A program made the translations under genes and the position numbers. DNA of 46,984 bases, from the UHGV virus genome UHGV-0142121; one strand, written 5' to 3'. The stretch's first letter is position 1, and the number at the start of each line of letters is the position of its first letter. Below, piece after piece: positions 3,387-46,984 of the stretch. Source of the stretch: a virus. The notes beneath the pieces were generated by a model. It was not told where the DNA came from. It was given only the letters and a program-made list of their open reading frames with translations, and did not search any database.

Positions 3387-6300
3387 TTAAACCGCCTGCA
3401 ACCGCTTCAGTTCGTTGTATTGGCCATCTGATAGTTGCCACATATTGTCAGCCATAAACAGCCCGGCAACCGTCGCCTGTATCAACCGTGGCGGCATAGT
3501 CGCCAGTTGTGCCAGTTCTTCCGGCGTCAGTGCGGTTCTCAGCCATGCAAATGGCACCGGCATCGCAGCGATAGCCTCTTCAATCGTCGTCAGCGTTGCC
3601 TCAATAAATGCCGTCTCAGCAGATCCAGATTGGGATCTTACATCTATATTTGATCGGCAATCGAGATCCGGTTCTTCCGGTGCCCCCACATCCAGTTTCA
3701 TCTGGACAAACGACAGTGATGCCTCGGCGCGACGCGCCAGAATTCCGTGAATGAATTCCCAGGATTCGGGGACGATTGACCACACGTAACCGAGGCCCTG
3801 TGAACGCGGTAGGCGGCGTTTTTGAGTCGCGTAACCGAATGCCTCACAGATCTGTTTGAAAACCGTCTCGGGGCGTTTCTGGCGGCCTTTAGGGTTTATA
3901 TAGCCACCGAACCGCAGGACGTTGTTGAAACGGTCCGCGGTGGTTGGGTCCATAAGTTTGGCCATAGCTTCCGCCATACCTTCCTGGCTGGCTTCACCGG
4001 CGCCGGTATCTGGGTTAATACCGCAGGTGGAGAAATACTCCCTGGCGGCCTTACGGTGCAGCGATGCGTACGTACGCTGGGTTACTTCCATCACCGGGCG
4101 GCTTTGGACGGTGTAGCCGGTTATTCCTGGCTGCATGCGGTCGAACTGCGCATCAGCTGCTTCGCGGTTGAGCGCGGTGATCGTTACAAATTCGTTACGC
4201 GGCCCTTTGCGGAATTGGTAGGTGAACGTGAAAGCCTGCTGCTCACGGTCAATGCGTGCGGCGGTCATTTCATCCATCGTCATCAGTTCGGCCAGCGTCA
4301 GTTTCTTCTTCCCGCCATCGAGCAGGAATTTCAGAGATTCCGGGCTGACATCCAGCATCAACTCTTTTTCGATATCCCAGCGCGCCAGTTGCGCCTGCTC
4401 ATCTTCAGATAGTGATCGCTTGCCCATCAGTTCGTCGCGTTCGTCTTCGTCCGGGGTTTCCACTTCCATATGGCGCAGAACGGTCATATCCCAGACCCGC
4501 TCTTTCGATGCCTTACGCAGTTCTTTGCCGGTTTCGCTGGCCAGCGAGTCTTCGGCCAAGTGGCTGACGTTATAGCCATCGGCGTAGAGAATGCAGATCA
4601 GGTTGTTGGCGAAATCGTTTCTGGCCTGGGCCTCCATCGCGGCAACTTTAAATTTCATGCGGACATAGGTGGTGTCCGCCAGACCAAGGGAAAGGCGGTC
4701 GCCATCCAGGATGGCGTCGGTAAATTCTTCGTTTATCTCGGCGGTTTCCAGCAGTGCCTGCAGGAACCCACGGCGGATGTTGTCGGCGTTCTCTTCGCGT
4801 ACGCCAGGCAGCTTGTTCAGGCCGACCATAAATTCGGTGGCGGTCCTGTCGCGGCGCAGCATCTGAATGGCGTCGGACGGCACTACCTGGCCGCAGAAGC
4901 AGCCGAAATGGCGGGTGAAGTGCCGTTCTTCGATCGAGACGCCAGAACTGATAGCCGGGCTATAAATCAGGCCATCGTAGAGTTTAGCGCGCTGGTTCGG
5001 CGCGTCGGTAAACGCCACGACTTCCTGATCCGGCTTTGTGTCCTGGCTGACGTAAAGCCATTTCTTTTCTGGCCAGCGGTCGCGCAGCTGCAGCAGCAAC
5101 TGTTCGGCAAAATTGGTTGAGTCGGTGGCCAGCAGGAATTTTTCGCCAGCGGCCACAGCTTTCAATACTTCAACCATTATGCGGTCGGTATCGGTGTAAA
5201 GCACGCGGCGCGCTTCGCGCGTACCGTCGACTTTTTTGTACTTCACATCAACCGGCAGCTCGATGACGTGGATCTGTGTCCAGGTCGACAGGCCGGTTTG
5301 TTCGCGTCTGGCCAGCGCCAGTTCGCAGAGGTCTACCAGGATATCGCTGGCGTCCGCATCAACCAGCAGTGCGTGGTCATCGCTGTACGCGATGGAGTCG
5401 ATAAGGCGATTGAACACATCAACCGGGTGCGCCATCGCTTTACCGGAAAGCGTAGCGCGCAGGCCCTGGGTAGCTTCATCCAGGCCAAAGAAATCGTGCT
5501 TGCGCATCAGCGGTTGCCAGCAGCCCTTCACGATTGAATTGATACAGATCGTCAGCTTGCTGGCATACGGCGCCAGTTCCTGATAGCCGGGGTCCTGATA
5601 GTGCAGGATATCGCAATTCATGCGGCGGCCATCGTCGGCACGCGTCATCATGTCCCAGAGGCCACCGATTAGCGAAACGCGGTGCGCAACCGAAACGCCA
5701 CGCTGCGCGCTGTGCATCATAGGGCGCAGCAGGTGCTTGGATTTGCCCGACCCCATGCCGGCACGGACTATTACCGGGCCATTCAGCGCTTTGATGTAAT
5801 CCAGCACGTCTTTGGTCATGTGCGGTGTATCGAACCGCTTATAGGTGATATGATCGGGGCGTATTGCCGGGTTCGTTACGCGCTCGCTGAATGATCGGAA
5901 AGCCTGGGCCTTGTCGCATTTCTGTTTGAAGGCGCGTTTAACGCGGTTATACACGGTACCGTGCAGCGCTTTGTCGGCGCCGAGCTGGTCCAGCTTCATT
6001 TTTATCAGCGAGATCAGCTCCTGCGGGGATAACTTGGACGGGCATTGCATCATGCCGGCATCAATGCAGCGTACCAGCTGGCGTGAGAACGCGCGGCGAT
6101 CGGAAACCGGCGCAACGGCCAGAGACAGCATTTCAGCATCAAAGGAATTGCCTGGCAGCTGCAGGCGGTTCTGTTTTGAAAACAGCTGGCGGTTAGTTTC
6201 GGTGGCACCACGCGCCAGGTGGAGATCGTTGAAATCGCTTAATTCAGTTTCGCTGCTGTCGAAAATCGGGAATGTGCAACGGACCTGCGGGAATTTCTTC

Positions 6301-7376
6301 ATCACGTCGATGCCGACTCTTAACCCGGTATTGCCCTTTCCATTACGGGCCGACTTCTGGTCGTTATCCAGTGCGCACCAGATTTCCATGCCTGGGTACA
6401 GGCTGACCAGCTGATCAACAACCTTGATAACGTTATTTGCTGACACAGCCACGACAACAGCGTCGAAGCGCTTTTTGGCAACGGCAAACACACTGGCGCC
6501 AGTCGCGAAGCCTTCAACAACGCAGATCCTGGTTGCGCCGCGCAGCTGGCCAATGATGTGGCACGAACCAGCAAAGTCACCGGAATCAACAGCGCGGGTC
6601 TGCAGCTTGTCGTTTCTCTCGGTGATTCGCTGCCAGCCAACAATCGGGCCAACGCGAGATTCCCTGTCTTCCCGGCGGTCATCAATATGAGACAGCGGGA
6701 TAGCCATAACAGTTTGTTTTTTAACCGTTTTAGAATTGGGACCATGGTCCCACTGGGTTACGCGCCTGACGTTGCAGTATGAGAAAATGGAGCTGATACC
6801 TTTCTTCACCGCGTATGGCCATGAACCATCTTCTGCCGGTGCGTTGGCGAATGCGGTGGAGAACTGCAGGTATTCGTTCAGGTCAGCGTCGCGGCGCTGC
6901 GACTCCATAAACACAGAGATAGCCTGCTGGCGTTCACGTTCCTGGCGGCGTGCCTCAGCACGTTTACGCTGTTCCAGCTCGCGCGCGGACAGTGGGACCA
7001 CGGTCCCACCGTTCTGTTCTTTGTACCGGCGATATTCGGCTATAAGGAACTGGAAACCACTCCAGGAGCCAGCGTCAGAGCCTTTACATACGAAGTTAAC
7101 AAACGGGTACTTGATGCCTTCCTGCGAACACTCCATGCGGGAGTAGATCTCAACCTTACCTTTCAGCTTTGGCTCAGTAACGGCAGGACCATGATGGGCG
7201 TACTTTGTGAATTTTTCGGCGGCACCGCGAGAGGCAGAAAGTTGAATATCACTGGCGCATTTATGCCAGTCGATGCCGGCAGCGCTCGCAAGATCACTCA
7301 ATTCATTTGATGCCGCGTCAAGCAGCGAAAACGGGTCAGAGTTAAATTTGTGTTGAAAAAAATCCGTTAATTTCAT
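3387..7376 (-). CDS. repA: Replication protein RepA (primase-helicase), about 1329 aa from ATG at 7376; track ORF extends to a TTG at 7388
   Basis: Size and architecture match N15 RepA; Walker A GMGSGKSK; GGTGA ribosome-binding site before the 7376 ATG. Confidence 0.88.
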   Translation of the reverse strand: MKLTDFFQHKFNSDPFSLLDAASNELSDLASAAGIDWHKCASDIQLSASRGAAEKFTKYAHHGPAVTEPKLKGKVEIYSRMECSQEGIKYPFVNFVCKGSDAGSWSGFQFLIAEYRRYKEQNGGTVVPLSARELEQRKRAEARRQERERQQAISVFMESQRRDADLNEYLQFSTAFANAPAEDGSWPYAVKKGISSIFSYCNVRRVTQWDHGPNSKTVKKQTVMAIPLSHIDDRREDRESRVGPIVGWQRITERNDKLQTRAVDSGDFAGSCHIIGQLRGATRICVVEGFATGASVFAVAKKRFDAVVVAVSANNVIKVVDQLVSLYPGMEIWCALDNDQKSARNGKGNTGLRVGIDVMKKFPQVRCTFPIFDSSETELSDFNDLHLARGATETNRQLFSKQNRLQLPGNSFDAEMLSLAVAPVSDRRAFSRQLVRCIDAGMMQCPSKLSPQELISLIKMKLDQLGADKALHGTVYNRVKRAFKQKCDKAQAFRSFSERVTNPAIRPDHITYKRFDTPHMTKDVLDYIKALNGPVIVRAGMGSGKSKHLLRPMMHSAQRGVSVAHRVSLIGGLWDMMTRADDGRRMNCDILHYQDPGYQELAPYASKLTICINSIVKGCWQPLMRKHDFFGLDEATQGLRATLSGKAMAHPVDVFNRLIDSIAYSDDHALLVDADASDILVDLCELALARREQTGLSTWTQIHVIELPVDVKYKKVDGTREARRVLYTDTDRIMVEVLKAVAAGEKFLLATDSTNFAEQLLLQLRDRWPEKKWLYVSQDTKPDQEVVAFTDAPNQRAKLYDGLIYSPAISSGVSIEERHFTRHFGCFCGQVVPSDAIQMLRRDRTATEFMVGLNKLPGVREENADNIRRGFLQALLETAEINEEFTDAILDGDRLSLGLADTTYVRMKFKVAAMEAQARNDFANNLICILYADGYNVSHLAEDSLASETGKELRKASKERVWDMTVLRHMEVETPDEDERDELMGKRSLSEDEQAQLARWDIEKELMLDVSPESLKFLLDGGKKKLTLAELMTMDEMTAARIDREQQAFTFTYQFRKGPRNEFVTITALNREAADAQFDRMQPGITGYTVQSRPVMEVTQRTYASLHRKAAREYFSTCGINPDTGAGEASQEGMAEAMAKLMDPTTADRFNNVLRFGGYINPKGRQKRPETVFKQICEAFGYATQKRRLPRSQGLGYVWSIVPESWEFIHGILARRAEASLSFVQMKLDVGAPEEPDLDCRSNIDVRSQSGSAETAFIEATLTTIEEAIAAMPVPFAWLRTALTPEELAQLATMPPRLIQATVAGLFMADNMWQLSDGQYNELKRLQAV
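6736..6753. repeat. sopC-like palindrome TTGGGACCATGGTCCCAC inside repA coding sequence
   Basis: Near-perfect 18-bp inverted repeat matching the dispersed family; encodes TQWDHGPN in RepA. Confidence 0.7.
7002..7019. repeat. sopC-like palindrome GTGGGACCACGGTCCCAC inside repA coding sequence
   Basis: Core TGGGACCACGGTCCCA, identical to the F sopC inverted repeat as I recall it; encodes GGTVVPL in RepA. Confidence 0.7.
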
Positions 7377-7405
7377 TATTTCACCCAAAAAAAGACGCTG
7401 CGCAG

Positions 7406-19990: not shown

Positions 19991-20842
19991 ATGGCTGAGA
20001 AAATTATTGCCGATGTACTCGATACTGCTCTGGCTCGACATTACGAGCAACTTGGCGATGCAGAACGTGAAAAACAGGCGGTGGTCTTTATGGATGGTCG
20101 CTGGGTGGCCATCCGCGGGGATTTTACCCCTGATGAAATTCGTGAAGCTGTGGAATACATCCATCGCTACCGTGTATCGAAAAAGCTCCAGAAATCGCTG
20201 GAAGATATCTCACCATTTGTTGTTGATAACGGTGAGGTATTCATCAAGGACGCATTTATTTCGGAAACTATCCACGCGGCAGAAACGCTGAAGCCGAAGA
20301 ACAGTAATAGCAACATAGATGTAGGTAAGATTCTTGACGATGCATGGAAAAGTGGTCGCCCATGTATCGGGGAGGCTGTGAACAATCTGGCTCAGGTTAT
20401 AGCAAGTGCCCGAGTATCCTCTCAAATCTTTAAGCAACATACGAGCTGCGGTGAGATAACGCCATTAACCTATACAGCATCTATGAGCATTAACGTAAAC
20501 GATGCCCCGTCCGCATCTGGTGCCGATAGTAACATTGATGGCATTTCATTTGAGGTGAGCGATAAGGACATGGTTGTCAATCTGGCTGGCGGTGGGCGAA
20601 TCGTCATCAGTAATTGGGGTGATAGCAGCACCATGGTATCGAAAGCATTACCACCACTTGCACATACAGCATCATTGGGTCTTTCCTGCCACGATATTGC
20701 GAAAGAAACATTATCAGCAGTGCTCGCCGCTACTCTCCCCAACGTACCAAGGGGTCGAACCGAAGAAGCGGCTATTGCCCTGGCTCGTGCGGTACGATCT
20801 GCTTTCAACGCGCTGGGAAACGATAATGCCAGCCCGCGCTAA
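19991..20842 (+). CDS. Hypothetical protein, 283 aa
   Basis: Strong AGGAG ribosome-binding site; no recognisable motif. Confidence 0.5.
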   Translation: MAEKIIADVLDTALARHYEQLGDAEREKQAVVFMDGRWVAIRGDFTPDEIREAVEYIHRYRVSKKLQKSLEDISPFVVDNGEVFIKDAFISETIHAAETLKPKNSNSNIDVGKILDDAWKSGRPCIGEAVNNLAQVIASARVSSQIFKQHTSCGEITPLTYTASMSINVNDAPSASGADSNIDGISFEVSDKDMVVNLAGGGRIVISNWGDSSTMVSKALPPLAHTASLGLSCHDIAKETLSAVLAATLPNVPRGRTEEAAIALARAVRSAFNALGNDNASPR

Positions 20843-21188
20843 GCGCCCTTGTAAGCACAAAGGATGCTCTACCGCCACTAACGACCCATCAGGATATTGC
20901 GATAGCCATCGCCAGCAGCACGCCGGTGATGGCTGGCGTAATTACCAGCCAGGGAAGAGCCGACAGGATCGCGGGTATGGAAGACCATGGGAGATACGCC
21001 GCGCTCGCATTCTGATGCGGGATAAATATCTCTGCCAGGACTGCCGGCGCCGGGGCATAGGCATGAAAGCTGAAAGTGTGGATCACATCATCCCGAAAGC
21101 CCATGGCGGCACCGATGACGATAGCAACCTCGAATCGTTGTGCTGGCCATGCCACCGCCGGAAGACAGCTAAGGAACGATTTAACTGA
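20826..21188 (+). CDS. HNH endonuclease, 120 aa
   Basis: Cys-rich zinc pattern plus DHIIPKAHGGTDD..NL..LCWPCH; start moved to ATG 20826; packaging-associated HNH by position. Confidence 0.7.
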   Translation: MPARAKRPCKHKGCSTATNDPSGYCDSHRQQHAGDGWRNYQPGKSRQDRGYGRPWEIRRARILMRDKYLCQDCRRRGIGMKAESVDHIIPKAHGGTDDDSNLESLCWPCHRRKTAKERFN

Positions 21189-21388
21189 TGGCATACATCC
21201 GTTGTACTTACTGCGGCTCGCAGCTGCATACCGTAGCGAACTGCCCTAAAACGTGGGGCGGTTCATCCCGCCGTGCCAACTTGCGCTGCGGCTATTGTGG
21301 ACAGTCAGGACATAACTCTAATGCCTGCCCACACAATGCGAGCAGCGGTCGCCGTCGTCAGTTGAACGAAAACTTTTATCTGGACTAA
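21188..21388 (+). CDS. Small zinc-finger protein, 66 aa
   Basis: Cys pairs CTYCG, CPK, CGYCG and a terminal Cys-Pro-His; ATGA coupling. Confidence 0.4.
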   Translation: MAYIRCTYCGSQLHTVANCPKTWGGSSRRANLRCGYCGQSGHNSNACPHNASSGRRRQLNENFYLD

Positions 21389-21392
21389 TGAG

Positions 21393-21779
21393 GTGATCAT
21401 GCTGGATTTAAATCCTCCAACAACTCCTGAAGAAAGTGCGGAGCATGGGCGCTTATACGCTGCATATATTGAATCCCTTGCCAGGACAAAACATCTGGCT
21501 TGCCAGAGGCTGTCGCTCAACGATAAAGAATATCCAGAATGGTTTGTTCTTTGGTTAGACGATGAAATTGCGCGTATTCGTTTTAAGTTAGAGGCGTTGA
21601 AATCCTGGAATAGACGAACTAATCCCGAAACTGCTGCAAATAAGGTTAGAAATATGATTTGGCAGGTTGATTACATGATGCGCGTAGCGACAGGGAAAGT
21701 GTTGCCTTGTCCTGTTAACCCTGAGTCAAATACTAACTGGCTTAACTATATGTCTACTACCAATGCACAGCCTGAATGA
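21393..21779 (+). CDS. Hypothetical protein, 128 aa, AT-richer than flanks
   Basis: ORF between HNH and cos; no motif. Confidence 0.45.
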   Translation: MIMLDLNPPTTPEESAEHGRLYAAYIESLARTKHLACQRLSLNDKEYPEWFVLWLDDEIARIRFKLEALKSWNRRTNPETAANKVRNMIWQVDYMMRVATGKVLPCPVNPESNTNWLNYMSTTNAQPE

Positions 21780-21799
21780 CGACTTTACTCTCGACTGAA

Positions 21800-21990
21800 C
21801 CGGCACCACGATGGCGGCGGGGGGATTGATTTCATTATGAAATCATTCAATGTGAAATCACTTTCAATATCAATAATGAGAATCAATATCATTAGAAGGG
21901 GATAGGGGGGGGTAAAATCCCTAAACCCCCCCGCCGTTGAGGACTGCCGCTTCCAGTCGATTTTTACACGTGGGAAATAAGATCTTTTTT
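21800..21990. other. Putative cos packaging site region
   Basis: Non-coding stretch just upstream of terminase small subunit with GGCGGCGGGGGG (21813-21825), a G8...C7 symmetric element (21903-21932) and repeated (A/G)TGAAATCA motifs. Confidence 0.4.
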
Positions 21991-22042
21991 TTGGATGAAA
22001 TTACCGTAACAGAAAACGCAATTGATGCATGGAGGTGCGCAG

Positions 22043-22480
22043 ATGGCGATGGGTGTGCGATCTCCAGGCGGTGGCCGGAAACCGAATAATATCGGCACAC
22101 AAGTCAGTTCAGTAACACGCGCCGTTTCGCCGCCAGATGAATTGCTGGGTGATATGGCCATTGATGCCTGGAAACGAACCTGCCGGCTGATGATCGATCG
22201 TGGCAACTTCGAAATGGAAGACTGCTACTTGCTGATGGAGTACTGCAACACGGTGCAGCTGCTGTACGACGCTAATCAGGAAATCAAAGGAGACGGGATC
22301 GGTGATGCGACTGCTGCCGGCGGCCAGAAGCTGGGCGCCGCGGTGAAAGCGCGTGATAAGTACATTTCGCAGCTCATCAGGCTGAGCGTCGTTCTGAAAC
22401 TGGACCCGAACAGCCGGGTCAGAGTTGCTAATCCGGGGCAAGGTGGCAAAGAAGCGGGAAACGATTTCGACGATTTTTAA
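22043..22480 (+). CDS. Terminase small subunit, about 145 aa
   Basis: Position directly upstream of terminase large subunit; GGAGG before ATG 22043. Confidence 0.55.
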   Translation: MAMGVRSPGGGRKPNNIGTQVSSVTRAVSPPDELLGDMAIDAWKRTCRLMIDRGNFEMEDCYLLMEYCNTVQLLYDANQEIKGDGIGDATAAGGQKLGAAVKARDKYISQLIRLSVVLKLDPNSRVRVANPGQGGKEAGNDFDDF

Positions 22481-22498
22481 TTGGGACCACGGTCCCAT
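22481..22498. repeat. sopC-like palindrome TTGGGACCACGGTCCCAT at the terS/terL junction
   Basis: 16-mer TGGGACCACGGTCCCA starts at the base after the terS stop and precedes the terL ATG. Confidence 0.7.
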
Positions 22499-22507
22499 TT
22501 TTTATGG

Positions 22508-24229
22508 ATGAGTTATATGGCCGCATACCCGAACGTCAATCTGGCGAATCAGTATGCGCGTGATGTGCTCAGCGGCAGCATAGTCGCCTGTAAATACATC
22601 CGGCTGGCCTGCCAGCGCCATTTTGACGACCTGAAAAAATCACTGGATAAGGATTATCCGTACCGATTTGACCGGGATTTAGCTGAACGAGCATGTCGAT
22701 TTGTTCAGCTGCTACCCCACTCCAGTGGGGACCTCAAAGGGCAGAAACTGAAGCTGGAAATGTGGCAAGCCTTCGCTTTCTGCTCGATCTTCGGCTGGGT
22801 TACGAAATCCAACAAAAAACGACGCTTTAAGGAAGCCTACATCCGCGTTGCCCGTAAAAACGGTAAATCGTTTATCTCTGCGGGCATTGGTATGTATATG
22901 TTCTGCGCTGATGGCGAAAACAGCGCAGAAGTTTACTGTGGCGCCACGCAGATGAGGCAGGCCAAGAAGGTCTTCACCCCAGCCCAACAAATAGCAAAAA
23001 TGCTGCCGGCGCTGCGCCGGCGGTTTGATGTTTCAGTCTGGACCGAGAAGCTGACGCGTCCGGACGGCTCCATATTTGCGCCGGTGGTCGGCGACCCTGG
23101 TGATGGTGACTCACCCAGCTGCGCCATCATTGACGAATACCACGAGCACAAAACAGACCGTCTTTACCAGGCGATGACGACGGGCATGGGCGCCCGTTCT
23201 CAGCCGTTGACGCTGATTATTACCACTGCCGGTACTGACCTCGAATCACCTTGTTACGACAAGGACAAAGAGGTCAAAGAGGCGCTGGACGAAATCACCC
23301 CGAACGATCGACTGTTTGGCATGATTTACGAGCTGGATCAGGGGGACGACTGGACTGACCCGGCCAACCTGATTAAAGCCAACCCGAACCTCGATGTCTC
23401 GGTGAAATACAGCGATCTGGTCGAGCTGCTGGAAGTGGCAAAGAAAGTCCCGCGTATGACGAACGCGTTTAAGACAAAGCGTCTGAATATGTGGGTTTCC
23501 GGTGCCGCAGCGTTCTTCAATATGGAGCAGTGGAAAGAAGCCGAAGATAAGACGCTGAAGCTGTCGGACTTTACTGATGACGATGCCAATCTGGGGCTGG
23601 ATCTCGCGAAAAAGCTCGATATGAACGCCTGCATACCTTTATTCACGCGGGAAATTGAGGGCAAGAAGCACTACTACTCCGTGGCCCCCAAATTTTGGGT
23701 CCCGGAAGATACAGTTCACAGCACCGATCCTAAGCACCTTAAAGCTGCTGACCGGTACCGGAAATTCGTCACGATGAAGGTACTGGAGGCGACCGATGGC
23801 GCCGAGGCTGATTATCGTGAAATTCACGCCAGCATTCTGGATCTGCGGCAGGAAATCAGGATTAAAGAAGCGGATATCGACCCGGCAGGTGCCACGGCGT
23901 TGCGGCATCTGCTGGAGGATGACGGGGTTGAATGTGTGGAGATCACGCAGAACTTCCAGAACATGTCTCCGGCGATGAACGAACTGGAAGCGGCGCTCGC
24001 CGGCGGGCGATTCCACCACGACGGCAATCCGATTCTCACCTGGTGTATCAGCAACGTTATCGGGAAGTTAATTCCCGGCAGCGATGACGTCGTTCGCCCG
24101 ACAAAAGGCGATAAACAATCAAAAATCGACGGCGCGACAGCGTTGTTTAACGCCCTTACGCGCGCGCTGCAGAACGGCGGAGGCGGGGGCGGCAAATCCA
24201 TTTATGACGAGGAAGACGTGGCATGTTAA
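22508..24229 (+). CDS. Terminase large subunit, about 573 aa
   Basis: Size, position and ATPase/nuclease layout typical of phage TerL; start moved to first in-frame ATG 22508. Confidence 0.8.
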   Translation: MSYMAAYPNVNLANQYARDVLSGSIVACKYIRLACQRHFDDLKKSLDKDYPYRFDRDLAERACRFVQLLPHSSGDLKGQKLKLEMWQAFAFCSIFGWVTKSNKKRRFKEAYIRVARKNGKSFISAGIGMYMFCADGENSAEVYCGATQMRQAKKVFTPAQQIAKMLPALRRRFDVSVWTEKLTRPDGSIFAPVVGDPGDGDSPSCAIIDEYHEHKTDRLYQAMTTGMGARSQPLTLIITTAGTDLESPCYDKDKEVKEALDEITPNDRLFGMIYELDQGDDWTDPANLIKANPNLDVSVKYSDLVELLEVAKKVPRMTNAFKTKRLNMWVSGAAAFFNMEQWKEAEDKTLKLSDFTDDDANLGLDLAKKLDMNACIPLFTREIEGKKHYYSVAPKFWVPEDTVHSTDPKHLKAADRYRKFVTMKVLEATDGAEADYREIHASILDLRQEIRIKEADIDPAGATALRHLLEDDGVECVEITQNFQNMSPAMNELEAALAGGRFHHDGNPILTWCISNVIGKLIPGSDDVVRPTKGDKQSKIDGATALFNALTRALQNGGGGGGKSIYDEEDVAC

Positions 24230-24408
24230 CAGCAGCGATCTCGGTTCTGATTTTTCTGATTGGTCTGGCCGGCGCCGTCATGATCTCTGCCGGCGCATGG
24301 CTATTTTCTCCCGCAGCGGGACTAATCACCGGCGGCGTTCTCTGTGTTTTTTGCTCATGTATGTGGGCTAAATATCTGGGTCAGTCAGCTAACAAGGGGA
24401 GCAACTAA
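24223..24408 (+). CDS. Small membrane protein, 61 aa
   Basis: Two hydrophobic helices; overlaps terL stop and portal start. Confidence 0.35.
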   Translation: MLTAAISVLIFLIGLAGAVMISAGAWLFSPAAGLITGGVLCVFCSCMWAKYLGQSANKGSN

Positions 24409-25670
24409 TGTTTATCCCCCAATTTTTCCGGGGAGCATCAAAACCCGGAGTAAACCGAGGCGACTGGACCGTCCTTGGTGGGTTCGGTGCCAGCAGTAGC
24501 TCATCGGGCATCATTATCACGCCGGAAACGGCCATGGCCATGTCGGCGGTCCGGGCATGTGTGACGCTTCTGGCGGAGTCGGTGGCGCAGCTGCCGTGCG
24601 AACTGTATCGACGGGATGAAAAAGGCGGGCGTATTCGGGCGACCGATCACCCGCTCTATGACCTGATTCACTCCCAGCCCAACAAGAAAGACACCTCATT
24701 TGAGTACTACGAGCAGCAGCAGGGCGCGCTGGGGATTGAAGGTAACTCGTTTGCGCTGATTGAGCGTAACGGGAAAGGTGAGCCGACGGAACTGATTCCT
24801 GTGAACCCGAAAAAGGTCATTGTGATGAAAGGCCCGGACGCGATGCCTTATTACCATCTTCCCGATCTCGGCGAAACATTGCCGATGCGCATGGTGCATC
24901 ACGTTAAATATTTCTCGTTCGACGGTTATGTCGGTACGTCGCCAATCCAGACGAACGCGGATGTTCTCGGCCTCGGTCTGGCCGTCGAGCAGCACGCTGC
25001 CCAGGTGTTTGCACGCGGCACGACTATGAGCGGTGTTATTGAACGTCCGAAAGAGGCGGCGGCAATCAAGAGCCAGGAGGCGATTGATAAGCTGCTGGCC
25101 AAATGGACGGATCGGTATTCGGGCGTCCGTAATGCGTTTTCTGTCGCGCTGCTGCAGGAGGGGATGAGCTATAAGCAACTTTCCCAGGACAACGAGAAAG
25201 CGCAACTGCTGGAATCGCGTAAATGGTCGGTGAACGAAATCTGCCGGCTGTATAAAGTCCCGCCGCACATGATTCAGCTGCTGGAACAGTCCACGAACAA
25301 CAACATCGAGCACCAGGGCCTGCAATACGTGATGTACACGCTGCTGGCCTGGCTGAAGCGACATGAAAGCGCGATGATGCGCGATCTGCTACTGCCCAGC
25401 GAACGCCGGGATCTGTATATCGAGTTCAACGTTTCCTCGCTGCTGCGAGGGGACCAGAAATCGCGCTATGAATCGTACGCGCTGGGGCGCCAGTGGGGCT
25501 GGTTATCGGTTAATGATATCCGCCGCATGGAGAATCTGCCGCCTATTCCTGGTGGTGAAACCTATCTGACACCGCTGAATATGGTGGATAGCGCCAAGGT
25601 TATTCAGGGCGTCAGCAAAGCCTCAGCCTCACAGCTGAAAGAGATTGAAGCCATTCTGGCACGTACCTGA
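24408..25670 (+). CDS. Portal protein, 420 aa
   Basis: Size and position after terminase; GGGGAG ribosome-binding site. Confidence 0.75.
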   Translation: MFIPQFFRGASKPGVNRGDWTVLGGFGASSSSSGIIITPETAMAMSAVRACVTLLAESVAQLPCELYRRDEKGGRIRATDHPLYDLIHSQPNKKDTSFEYYEQQQGALGIEGNSFALIERNGKGEPTELIPVNPKKVIVMKGPDAMPYYHLPDLGETLPMRMVHHVKYFSFDGYVGTSPIQTNADVLGLGLAVEQHAAQVFARGTTMSGVIERPKEAAAIKSQEAIDKLLAKWTDRYSGVRNAFSVALLQEGMSYKQLSQDNEKAQLLESRKWSVNEICRLYKVPPHMIQLLEQSTNNNIEHQGLQYVMYTLLAWLKRHESAMMRDLLLPSERRDLYIEFNVSSLLRGDQKSRYESYALGRQWGWLSVNDIRRMENLPPIPGGETYLTPLNMVDSAKVIQGVSKASASQLKEIEAILART

Positions 25671-25710
25671 AACAAGTCCGCAGCCGCGGGCTTTTCTTTT
25701 GGTGGAAACC

Positions 25711-26622
25711 ATGAAACTAAAAATGATTAACCTGCCGCACCTTGCGGATCAGGTCTTCGGTGTTCCGCACTATGCAACGCGCCAGATTATGGACTCGGTG
25801 AAAGCCGTTCTGGTCCCGCGCCTGCAGGGGAATGGTTCTCCGGATTTGTCTATGGCGTTCGAAGCCGATGATGCCCCAGAGCCTGAGCAAACGCAGGCCG
25901 CAGGCGGCGTCGCAGTGATTCCCGTTCACGGCATCCTGGTGCCGCGACGCGGCCAGATTACGGCGGCCTGTACGGAGCTGACCAGCTACGAGCGAATCCG
26001 CGGCATGATTAGCGCCGCGCTGAGCGATGCGGCTGTCAGTGAAATCGTGCTGGATATTAACTCTGGTGGCGGAGCTGCAGTCGGCTGTAAAGAACTGGCC
26101 GATTACATTTTCCAGTCGCGTGACGTGAAGCCGATCACCGCTATCGTGAATTTCAGTGCCTACTCAGCGGCCTATTTTATCGCGTCGGCATGTAGCAAGG
26201 TTCTCGTCAGCCAGACCAGCGGTGTGGGGTCGATTGGCGTCATCATGGAGCACATGGAGGCGTCAAAGTGGGAAGAGAATATCGGTCTGAAGTTTACGAC
26301 GATTTTCCGCGGCGATAACAAGAACAATGGCTCGCAACATGAACCTCTGAGCGAGCAGGCCATGGCGATGTTTCAGGGCATGATCGACCAGATGTATGAG
26401 GTATTCACCAGTTCGGTTGCTGAATACCGCGGCATGGCGCAACAGGCGGTTATCGATACGCAGGCGGCGCTGTATACAGGTGCTGACGCGGTTGCTGCCG
26501 GGTTAGCTGATGAAGTTTCCGACCCACAATCGGCTATCAACGCGATTGCAGCAAAGTACCGAAAACCCCAGCAATCAATCCTGTTACGGGCCTCAGTCAT
26601 GGACATGCAGACCCAACTTTAA
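25711..26622 (+). CDS. Prohead protease, S49 (SppA-like) family, about 303 aa
   Basis: LDINSGGG and GVGSIGV motifs typical of S49 peptidases (lambda C-like); start moved to ATG 25711. Confidence 0.6.
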   Translation: MKLKMINLPHLADQVFGVPHYATRQIMDSVKAVLVPRLQGNGSPDLSMAFEADDAPEPEQTQAAGGVAVIPVHGILVPRRGQITAACTELTSYERIRGMISAALSDAAVSEIVLDINSGGGAAVGCKELADYIFQSRDVKPITAIVNFSAYSAAYFIASACSKVLVSQTSGVGSIGVIMEHMEASKWEENIGLKFTTIFRGDNKNNGSQHEPLSEQAMAMFQGMIDQMYEVFTSSVAEYRGMAQQAVIDTQAALYTGADAVAAGLADEVSDPQSAINAIAAKYRKPQQSILLRASVMDMQTQL

Positions 26623-26694: not shown

Positions 26695-27984
26695 ATGCCT
26701 CAGATTGAAGAATTACGTCGTCAGCGCGCGGGTATTAACGATCAGGTTCAGGCTCTGGCTCAGGTTGAGCTGGGCGGCGGCGTATTGTCCGCCGAGCAAC
26801 TGACTCAGTTTAACAGCCTGCAGCAACAGTTCACCGATATCACCGCTCAAATCACCCGTCTGGAAGCGGCAGAACGCGCCGCAGCAGCGGTAGCGGTTCC
26901 GGTATCCGCAACGGGTACTGGCGCGCCGGCGATTCATGTGAAAGCCGAACCCGCTCAGTACAAGGGCGCGAGCATGACCCGCATGGTTATGGCTATCGCC
27001 GCCGGTGGTGGTAACCTGGGCGATGCGCAGATCTTTGCCGCTAAGGAACTGAACGATAATCAGGTCGCGATGGCGATCAGCACTGCTGCCGGTTCTGGTG
27101 GCGCTCTGGTTCCGACCAATATGCAGAACGAGGTCATCGAGCTGCTGCGCGACCGCACCATCGTTCGTAAGCTGGGCGCGCGTTCCGTGCCACTGCCGAA
27201 CGGCAATATGGCTCTGCCACGCCTGGCCGGTGGTTCGACTGCCAGCTATGTCGGTGAAGGGAAGGACGTGAAAGCCAGCGGCGCCAGCTTTGATGATGTG
27301 AAACTCAGCGCGAAAACGATGATCTGTATGGTTCCGCTGTCGAACCAGTTGATCGGTCGCGCCGGGTTCTCTGTTGAGCAGCTGATTCTGGGCGATATCA
27401 TCAGCGGTATTGCTACCCGCGAAGATAAAGCCTTCCTGCGTGATGATGGCACCGCTGACACGCCGAAGGGCATGAAAGCAGTTGCGACCGCTGCGACACG
27501 CTTCAAAACGTGGGATAAGGATGCTGACCCAACGCTGCAGAACATCGACACCTATCTGGATGGGCTGATCCTGATGACCATGGACGGCAACAGCAACATG
27601 CTGCAGTGCGGCTGGGGTATGTCTAACCGCACCTACATGAAGCTGTTTGGTCTGCGTGATGGCAACGGGAACAAGGTTTACCCGGAAATGGCCGCCGGTA
27701 TGCTGAAGGGCTATCCTATTGAGCGTACCAGCGCGATCCCGGCGAACCTCGGTACCGGCGGTAACGAGTCAGAGATTTACTTCGCTGACTTCAGCGATGT
27801 GCTGATCGGTGAAGAGGGAGACATGAAGGTCGATTTCTCGCGTGAAGCAACTTACATCGATGCGGATGGCAACACCGTTTCTGCGTTCGCCCGTAACCAG
27901 TCCCTGATCCGCGTTATCGTTGAGCACGATATTGGTTTCCGTCACGTCGAAGGTCTGGCGCTCGGTACCGGCGTTCTCTGGTAA
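26695..27984 (+). CDS. Major capsid protein with N-terminal coiled-coil (scaffold-like) domain, 429 aa
   Basis: Position after protease, size, and an N-terminal 90-aa Ala/Gln-rich helical region. Confidence 0.75.
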   Translation: MPQIEELRRQRAGINDQVQALAQVELGGGVLSAEQLTQFNSLQQQFTDITAQITRLEAAERAAAAVAVPVSATGTGAPAIHVKAEPAQYKGASMTRMVMAIAAGGGNLGDAQIFAAKELNDNQVAMAISTAAGSGGALVPTNMQNEVIELLRDRTIVRKLGARSVPLPNGNMALPRLAGGSTASYVGEGKDVKASGASFDDVKLSAKTMICMVPLSNQLIGRAGFSVEQLILGDIISGIATREDKAFLRDDGTADTPKGMKAVATAATRFKTWDKDADPTLQNIDTYLDGLILMTMDGNSNMLQCGWGMSNRTYMKLFGLRDGNGNKVYPEMAAGMLKGYPIERTSAIPANLGTGGNESEIYFADFSDVLIGEEGDMKVDFSREATYIDADGNTVSAFARNQSLIRVIVEHDIGFRHVEGLALGTGVLW

Positions 27985-46746: not shown

Positions 46747-46916
46747 CGTAACAAAATACGAATTTGAATTACAATAATTGAACACACTACCACGCCAATA
46801 AAATGACCAACCATAAAACCAATAGAACCTAATCAAACAAAATCATCGTAACACAATCTACAATTAATCATCGTAACAACATCCGAATGAATTAGCAGGG
46901 TGTATCATATCGTAAC
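46747..46916. promoter_or_regulatory. Telomere-flanking repeat array, right arm: ATCGTAAC at 46845, 46870, 46909 and CGTAAC at 46747, in AT-rich non-coding DNA
   Basis: Reverse complement of the GTTACGAT repeats next to the left telomere. Confidence 0.5.
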
Positions 46917-46930
46917 AATTATTGAATGAT

Positions 46931-46984
46931 TAACAGAACACATTATTAAATATACGCGCGTATATTTAATAATGTGTTCTGTTA
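46931..46984. repeat. Hairpin telomere, right end: 54-nt perfect palindrome (apex between 46957 and 46958)
   Basis: Reverse complement of 46931-46957 equals 46958-46984; shares the 40-nt core with the left-end palindrome, outer 7 nt differ. Confidence 0.85.

Follow-up and report, generated by a model that had tools for sequence, protein, structure and literature searches.

A predicted cos site of the HK97/P27/phiKO2 type, with a conserved upstream G-box, in a telomere phage genome

We analyzed the non-coding DNA in front of the gene for the small terminase subunit (TerS) in the virus genome UHGV-0142121, a stretch of 46,984 nucleotides that is called the window below. With the TerS start taken at the ATG at 22043, this non-coding stretch spans positions 21780-22042. 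An earlier reading made from the letters alone (the sequence-only reading) had placed a cos (cohesive-end) region of a lambda-like packaging module here; it was right that the DNA is non-coding but gave its length as 240 bp, where we count 263 nt. Comparison with phages that have defined ends indicates that positions 21898-21992 very probably hold the cos site of a telomere prophage whose packaging system is of the HK97/P27/phiKO2 type. Homology to the defined ends of these relatives bears out the earlier view that a cos region lies immediately before the TerS gene. The parts of the locus, from left to right, are as follows.

21766-21797, plus strand: conserved 3' end of a gp64-like zinc-knuckle gene (...SLNDDFTLD*), found in alignments; phiKO2 gene 64 has the same end
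21798-21896, no strand: optional accessory block with the GGCGGCGGGGGG box, TGAAATCA copies and TCAATATCA repeats (repeat search, alignments)
21898-21921, no strand: conserved G-box GGGGATAGGGGGGGGTAAAATCCC, a G run with AAATC, bounding the cos core on its left (comparison)
21922-21940, no strand: variable spacer with the C7 run at 21926-21932 (alignment with relatives)
21941-21954, no strand: predicted nicking site, GGAC at 21941-44 followed by the predicted 10-nt 3'-protruding end TGCCGCTTCC at 21945-21954 (homology)
21955-21992, no strand: downstream half of cos, AGTCGATTTTTACACGTGGGAAATAAGATC plus T8, numbered +1 to +38 (conservation, co-variation with TerS)

Predicted ends and packaging genes

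The assignment draws on observed homology, gene content, conservation, spacing and the optional nature of the repeat block, whereas the exact nicks are predicted. By homology, the top strand would be nicked at 21954/21955 and the bottom strand at 21944/21945, leaving a 10-nt 3' overhang, TGCCGCTTCC. The final 10 nt of the phiKO2 (TGCCGCTTCA), PY54 (TGCCTGTCCC) and HK97 (CGCCGCCAAA) records align gap-free with this 10-mer, which differs from the phiKO2 end at one position and from the PY54 end at three. It aligns likewise with the annotated 'cos-site' of phiP27, CGCCCGCCCC, which consists of exactly the 10 nt behind GGAC. The phiKO2 record follows the order of the virion chromosome, ending ...GGGGGTAGGGGGGATCAAATCCCTAACCCCTTTCGCGCTAAAGGACTGCCGCTTCA and beginning GGTAGATTTTTGCGCGTGAGAAATAAGAATTTTTTTTTGG, and the PY54 and HK97 records break at the equivalent position, such that all three end with G-run-AAATC-N(21/22)-GAC plus 10 nt and open with the downstream half. 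On either side of this record-end junction, from the G-box to the T tract, the window can be aligned without a gap, and its non-coding sequence at 21765-21997 is ~80% identical to that of Klebsiella telomere phages.

We read the record ends as true termini because the phiP27 site is annotated, the HK97 numbering matches and overhangs have been reported for PY54/P840 and HK97. Specifically, ten-nucleotide 3'-protruding ends have been described in PY54 and P840 (PMC10612081), and HK97 has 10-nt 3' overhangs, its HNH protein gp74 stimulating cos cleavage (PMC9410871). Position 1 of the HK97 record corresponds to +1 of Chechik et al., with T16, the C:G pair at 21 and the A/T positions at 24-29 all matching. 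The phiKO2 overhang was taken from the record coordinates together with the statement on PY54/P840, and four independent records agree. The view of the sequence-only reading that the cohesive end could not be read from the letters holds in the physical sense, but the end is predictable by homology.

Around the predicted overhang, GACTG-N7-CAGTC (21942-21958) forms an approximate two-fold symmetry; in relatives, only a weak AC-N10-12-GT symmetry surrounds the 10-mer (GAC-N10-GTC in phiP27). The same positions, GACTG-N7-CAGTC plus T5, represent the sole terminator-like match on the plus strand, at what is the nick site, with a stem that is not kept in relatives. The promoter scan found none in the scanned region.

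The genes around the site are the following.

20826-21188, plus strand: HNH endonuclease, predicted cos-cleavage accessory nuclease (Pfam HNH, 5e-15; PHROG HNH families)
22043-22480, plus strand: TerS of the P27 family (PF05119)
22517-24229, plus strand: large terminase subunit (TerL), ATPase and nuclease domains (PF03354 and PF20441)
24408-25670: portal protein (family match)
25645-26622: open reading frame (ORF) of an S49 protease, called gene ~25711-26622 (family match)
26695-27984: HK97-fold capsid protein (family match)

The HNH gene starts at Met85 of ORF 20574-21188 and lies ~750 bp upstream of the predicted cut, separated from it by two small ORFs without a family match. Its product is 61% identical to the HNH protein L34 of phiP27, whose gene immediately precedes the P27 cos, and weakly similar to HK97 gp74 (E = 1e-6). 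The TerS ATG at 22043 follows GGAGGTG and, like the TerL start at 22517, is the start chosen by the gene caller on contigs with an identical portal protein. The match of TerS to TIGR01558 falls below the curated cutoff, and its closest named homologues (92%) are encoded on Citrobacter contigs of ~49 kb. TerL is ~80% identical to its phiKO2 counterpart, 73% identical to that of PY54 and 24% identical to HK97 gp2 (E = 6e-35, BLASTP); its sole sequence match in the PDB is HK97 TerL, 6Z6D (E = 6e-30). Thus, an HNH gene upstream, a P27-family TerS and an HK97-like TerL, in DNA that, next to TerS, is homologous to defined phage ends, make this module HK97/P27-like and not lambda-like, and it should be refiled accordingly. 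In the gap between TerL and portal, a 61-aa ORF (24223-24408) occupies the same position as phiKO2 Gp3 and phiP27 L37.

The G-box, the downstream half and TerS recognition

The C of AAATC in the G-box lies 35 nt before the predicted top-strand nick, and the box is found in phiKO2, PY54, HK97 and phiP27. Among 64 IMG/VR loci gathered by TerS protein similarity, not by DNA, at least 57 carry the core before TerS; the other seven lacked a match to the regular expression, which can miss true boxes, and were not read individually. Of the 41 unique sequences, 40 have AAATC at 35 nt from the nick; in the HK97 and P27 types, this distance is 34 nt. Conservation sets in abruptly at GGGG.AGGGGGG and extends to the T tract, and further upstream the sequences are unrelated between phages, with at least five different contexts. 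A pattern scan for G-box ... GACYGCC recovered at least 120 stretches in IMG/VR, in which the same box precedes at least four kinds of downstream half (the phiKO2/SfV type, the HK97 type and two others) and occurs with two TerS groups, P27-type and HK97-type, that have no detectable sequence similarity and belong to different PHROGs.

The G run within the box is 6-12 nt long in enterobacterial relatives. One group of the Klebsiella type has a run of 5 nt, and the phiP27 type an interrupted one. Among L204-L207 and L208-L219, which are relatives with an identical portal protein or a 92-95%-identical TerS, the run counts 8, 10 or 12, a variation that may be genuine or may stem from sequencing errors in homopolymers. 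In L055, L064-L068 and L074, the box reads GGGGGTTCAAATCCC, with the look of a tRNA T-arm. We considered and dismissed the G-box as a T-arm (GGG(T)TCAAATCCC): neither ARAGORN nor Rfam finds a tRNA, loop and stem are not conserved, and the resemblance is no more than that.

The downstream half behaves differently. It is conserved in all P27-TerS relatives aligned, and its similarity follows that of TerS: for positions +11 to +45, DNA identity is correlated with TerS identity at a Spearman rho of 0.84, with a mean DNA identity of 0.37 when the TerS proteins are less than 25% identical, compared to a rho of 0.36 and a mean of 0.56 for the G-box. In HK97, TerS binds +15 to +29, reading the C:G pair at 21 plus the A-tract (PMC11331095). 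The AlphaFold2 (AF2) model of the window's TerS (mean pLDDT 68, helices 83-91) has as its best PDB matches in Foldseek HK97 TerS, 6Z6E, and the DNA complex of that protein, 8POP, with a probability of 0.99, target-normalized template modelling scores of 0.69-0.80, a root-mean-square deviation of 2.4-2.8 A and weak E-values. Furthermore, the predicted disordered N-terminus of TerS carries the invariant residues R6 and K13, which recall the Lys4/Arg5/Arg7 arm of HK97 TerS (PMC11331095). By analogy with HK97, the TerS recognition site is predicted at +13 to +38, CACGTGGGAAATAAGATC plus T8, that is, a specific box followed by an A/T tract. The co-variation with TerS and the HK97-like fold of the TerS model support such a downstream TerS site and also a G-box that is read by a factor other than TerS.

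We infer that the G-box is a subsite for TerL/HNH positioning or for termination, similar to cosQ; as no experiment on the HK97 region upstream of -20 was found, its role is derived from these comparisons. Tentatively, and with somewhat less than even confidence, we suggest that it could be an uncharacterized, TerS-independent cos subsite that is common to HK97-, P27- and phiKO2-type phages and that positions or arrests TerL and the HNH protein, setting the nicks 10 nt apart. No mention of such an upstream element was found in the literature searched, the search being limited.

Several points weigh against the assignment as a whole or against its parts. The nicks were placed by homology, and their true positions could differ by ~1 nt. 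The TerS model is only moderately confident, as its mean pLDDT indicates, and the Foldseek E-values are ~1. The sequences used for the co-variation analysis were selected for the box, which inflates box conservation, and the statistic ignores phylogeny. AAATC is not invariant, L210-L215 having AAATT instead. Finally, some TerL relatives, for example Vibrio VPBES, have no such region before TerS.

Taken together, these observations would fit a simple scheme of packaging, most of which is modelled on HK97. A ring-shaped TerS of the P27 family would load on the downstream half, as HK97 TerS does on +15 to +29, and would thereby mark the start of the genome and, at termination, stall the incoming motor. 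The TerL nuclease and the HNH protein would nick the strands 10 nt apart, at GGAC followed by TGCCGCTTCC. Under our own hypothesis, the G-box, at a fixed distance upstream, would position or arrest the complex of TerL, HNH protein and motor; when the motor reaches the terminal cos, it would meet the box just before the nick site, as in the case of lambda cosQ. Packaging would proceed rightward from 21955, with the TerS gene first.

The repeat block, the G/C symmetry and alternative explanations

Upstream of the G-box, the repeat block opens with the GGCGGCGGGGGG box at 21813-21824. Over both strands, the window contains TGAAATCA seven times without a mismatch, and three of these copies fall within 34 bp, at 21827-21834 (minus strand), 21838-21845 and 21853-21860. 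Together, the first two make up the perfect palindrome TGATTTCA-TTA-TGAAATCA, and the third follows 15 nt further on (a 15-nt period); a copy with one mismatch lies at 21996. Two TCAATATCA repeats at 21864-21894 complete the block. In the KpLi5 group, the first half of the block is ~80% conserved, and related versions are present in HK97 and PY54. According to the alignments, the block is missing, with the same cos core present, from phiKO2, Kpn_R1, ST846phi9.1, L207, L216 and L217, and the last three have a portal or TerS plus a cos core that are identical, or nearly so, to those of the window. Other close relatives carry a different block, made solely of AATCAATATCA repeats. By these comparisons, the TGAAATCA/GGCGGCGGGGGG block is an optional accessory that this type of packaging does not require. 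The interval from the last upstream gene to the G-box is very plastic in near-identical phages, holding the TGAAATCA block, the AATCAATATCA block or none; among the relatives compared, no upstream gene was a consistent partner of the repeat block.

The gene remnant that precedes the block, at 21766-21797, is out of frame with the 128-aa ORF 21393-21779, which has no family match, and we therefore regard it as a mosaic remnant or replacement junction. The close relatives L205 and L206 retain more of the phiKO2 gp64-like double zinc-knuckle gene at this place.

The G/C element consists of G8 at 21905-21912, the 13 nt TAAAATCCCTAAA and C7 at 21926-21932. The sequence-only reading was right about the presence of GGCGGCGGGGGG and of G8-N13-C7, and about where the latter ends; its start at 21903 includes two extra bases. 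G8 is the only G run of at least 7, and C7 the only C run of at least 6, in the whole window, and in 300 simulations of the window with a first-order Markov model, a run of at least seven G was never followed at 3-30 nt by a run of at least seven C. These runs are not due to chance. The symmetry that they create is another matter. In the position of the spacer at 21922-21940, relatives read CCCCTTTCGCGC, and C7 is replaced by CCCCTTT in phiKO2, PY54 and most relatives and by C5 or C6 in a few. An identical TerS protein, P0001, is encoded by L214, with CCCCTTT, and by L216 and L217, with C7. By this comparison, the C7 run, and hence the G8-N13-C7 symmetry, is a lineage-specific variant of the G-box plus spacer and not a structural requirement. 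Because C7 varies with an identical TerS and the hairpin is no stabler than shuffled sequences, the symmetry is probably incidental. By homology, the ends are not made at this element either: the predicted cut site starts 13 nt past the C7 run, outside the element.

A longer inverted repeat joins 21815-27 to 21924-36, and 21808-21940 folds at z = -4.3. One of its arms lies inside the optional block that is missing from L207 and others, so that we do not consider this repeat a required structure.

Among the alternatives to a cos site at 21898-21992 with a downstream TerS site, one would make the TGAAATCA repeats and the GGCGGCGGGGGG box the binding sites of TerS, a cosB equivalent upstream of the cut, which comes close to the earlier suggestion that the repeated motifs are terminase-binding sites. 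The clustering is real, and three exact 8-mers in 34 bp with a perfect palindrome are what a protein operator typically shows. In addition, conservation with Klebsiella phages is ~80% in the first half of the block, and HK97 and PY54 have a similar block at the same place. The binding role does not follow, however: phiKO2 has no block, nor do L207, L216, L217 and Kpn_R1, with identical or near-identical TerS and cos core, and what is missing from phiKO2 and near-identical relatives cannot be an essential terminase site. Moreover, HK97 TerS binds downstream of the cut, where a fragment from -20 to +80 suffices (PMC11331095), TerS co-varies with the identity of the downstream and not of the upstream sequence, and the IHF consensus WATCAANNNNTTR is absent from the region and from the whole window. 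We accordingly consider upstream TerS binding improbable. Still much less probable is a different mode of packaging altogether, either headful (pac) packaging or a cos of the lambda/N15 type whose 5' overhang, 12 nt long, would lie in the GGCGGCGGGGGG box. A lambda-type cos is indeed used by N15, the prototype of the telomere phages, and GGCGGCG resembles part of the lambda end GGGCGGCGACCT. But the domain search did not find lambda-type terminase domains, lambda cosN with up to two mismatches does not occur in 21800-21990, and the GGCGGCGGGGGG box is missing from close relatives. Furthermore, the closest TerL relatives with defined ends, phiKO2 and PY54, are cos phages, and the ends reported for PY54 are ten-nucleotide 3' extensions (PMC10612081).

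Two other explanations concern the conserved core itself. The G8-N13-C7 inverted repeat could form a hairpin or cruciform, acting in DNA as a cleavage or recognition signal or, in the late transcript before TerS, as an attenuator or stability element of the RNA. The 8-bp G:C stem, predicted at -9.2 kcal/mol as DNA, the uniqueness of the run pair in the window and the retention of G8-10 with C7 in several near-identical relatives speak for this possibility, which we nevertheless find very unlikely. The fold energy is no better than that of composition-matched shuffles (z = -0.3), the equivalent hairpins of homologues are unconvincing (z = +0.8 in HK97, +0.5 in phiP27 and only -2.0 in phiKO2), and most relatives have CCCCTTT, including L214, which shares the TerS of C7 carriers. 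The stem is not followed by a T tract; a scan of 21300-22500 against Rfam with E-values yielded just two chance-level snoRNA hits, neither in the element, and ARAGORN found no tRNA in the whole window. Rfam, ARAGORN and the hairpin z-scores thus give no indication of a structured RNA or a tRNA-derived element. As for the G-box, it could be conserved merely as a by-product, a recombination junction or a hitch-hiker with the nick site, that plays no role in packaging. The box does sit exactly where the homology of these mosaic genomes begins, and no experiment has assigned it a function. Such an origin appears unlikely given that the box keeps a fixed 34-35 bp to the nick although TerL is only 24% identical and the TerS proteins have no detectable similarity, and given that the spacer between box and nick diverges freely. 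A fixed box next to a freely diverging spacer is the pattern expected from selection on the box itself.

Genome type, novelty and relation to known systems

The window is a complete telomere phage, a linear plasmid prophage. Perfect palindromes occupy 1-54 and 46933-46984, around TATACGCGCGTATA and with the common core CACATTATTAAATATACGCGCGTATATTTAATAATGTG, and we interpret them as hairpin telomeres that the assembler read through, so that the window represents the whole linear plasmid prophage. All four TelK protelomerase domains are present in ORF 213-2114, which adjoins the left telomere, and the cos lies mid-genome, at 21.9 kb of 47 kb. The telomeres are flanked by eight copies of TGTTACGAT(R)A with at most one mismatch, five at 53-200 and three, in opposite orientation, at 46843-46917; the window holds 11 copies against 1.2 expected. 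These copies are probably binding sites for the protelomerase or for another telomere- or partition-associated protein. One copy with a single mismatch lies in the TerS leader (22001-22011), within chance expectation. On the minus strand, a 1333-aa ORF (3387-7388) fits an N15 RepA-like replicase in size and position and is a candidate only.

The phage and plasmid collections searched yielded no close relative. Exact-match scans of genome, viral and metagenome contig collections did not find the exact variant of G-box plus C run that the window has; metagenome assemblies with the same portal do contain this sequence. A looser genome scan returned a single Klebsiella chromosome with an ST846-type cos. 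We class the cos of the window as a new and rather divergent representative of a cos family that is already known.

For this genome, the analysis fixes the packaging origin and a predicted virion map, with the left end at 21955 and TerS as the first gene, and provides a concrete predicted cohesive-end sequence. For the family, it suggests a division of cos into a TerS-specific downstream half, a TerS-independent G-box at fixed spacing, and a freely variable spacer and optional block. The wider interest lies in the conserved upstream G-box that is independent of the type of TerS. HK97 itself carries the box, which is a part of its cos outside the published binding studies, these being restricted to -20 to +80.

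Among known systems, the cos of lambda and N15 (cosQ-cosN-cosB) follows an analogous logic, in which a termination element lies upstream of a nicking site and TerS binds a region downstream of it, before the TerS gene. Lambda lacks an HNH protein and has a 12-nt 5' overhang, a gpNu1/gpA terminase, R sites and IHF sites. The window shows none of these lambda features: it differs in having other terminase families (PF05119 for TerS, PF03354/PF20441 for TerL) and an HNH gene upstream, and has neither a 12-mer within two mismatches of GGGCGGCGACCT nor an IHF consensus; the lambda-like module of the sequence-only reading was accordingly abandoned.

PhiP27 (AJ298298) and the SfV/ST64B-like prophages have a TerS of the same Pfam family and, at 61% identity, a related HNH protein. 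PhiP27 shares the G-box, there GGGGAGGGGCGGGTCAAATCCC, GGAC with the 10 nt annotated as its cos-site, which are equivalently placed, and the downstream ATTTTTACAC...GAAAT. It differs in the overhang, CGCCCGCCCC, in a spacing of 34 rather than 35 nt, in the lack of a long T tract, and in that its HNH gene abuts cos, which in the window is set apart from that gene by two small ORFs.

HK97 (NC_002167), on which HNH-assisted cos packaging with a 3' overhang has been modelled experimentally, shares the layout of an AT-rich repeat block, a G run, ATCAAATC, 34 nt, GAC plus a 10-nt GC-rich end, and an A/T tract. The homologous TerL, an HNH gene that lies upstream in the window and a TerS core fold that the model predicts to match add to this likeness. 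On the other hand, HK97 TerS has no detectable sequence similarity to that of the window, the TerS-binding downstream half is unrelated, and the A/T tract starts at +24 in HK97 and at +31 in the window. The prohead protease of the window is of the S49 family, unlike that of HK97, and HK97 integrates in the chromosome, whereas the window element is a linear plasmid.

With phiKO2 (AY374448), a phage that has been shown experimentally to be a prophage, and with PY54 (AJ564013)/vB_YenS_P840, the window is only ~74-80% identical at the nucleotide level. Its spacer has C7 where these two have CCCCTTT, and positions +1 to +5 read AGTCG instead of GGTAG; the TGAAATCA block of the window has no counterpart in phiKO2 and another version in PY54. 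These phages nonetheless share the lifestyle and the machinery of the window, each being likewise a linear plasmid prophage with a protelomerase and a P27-family TerS.

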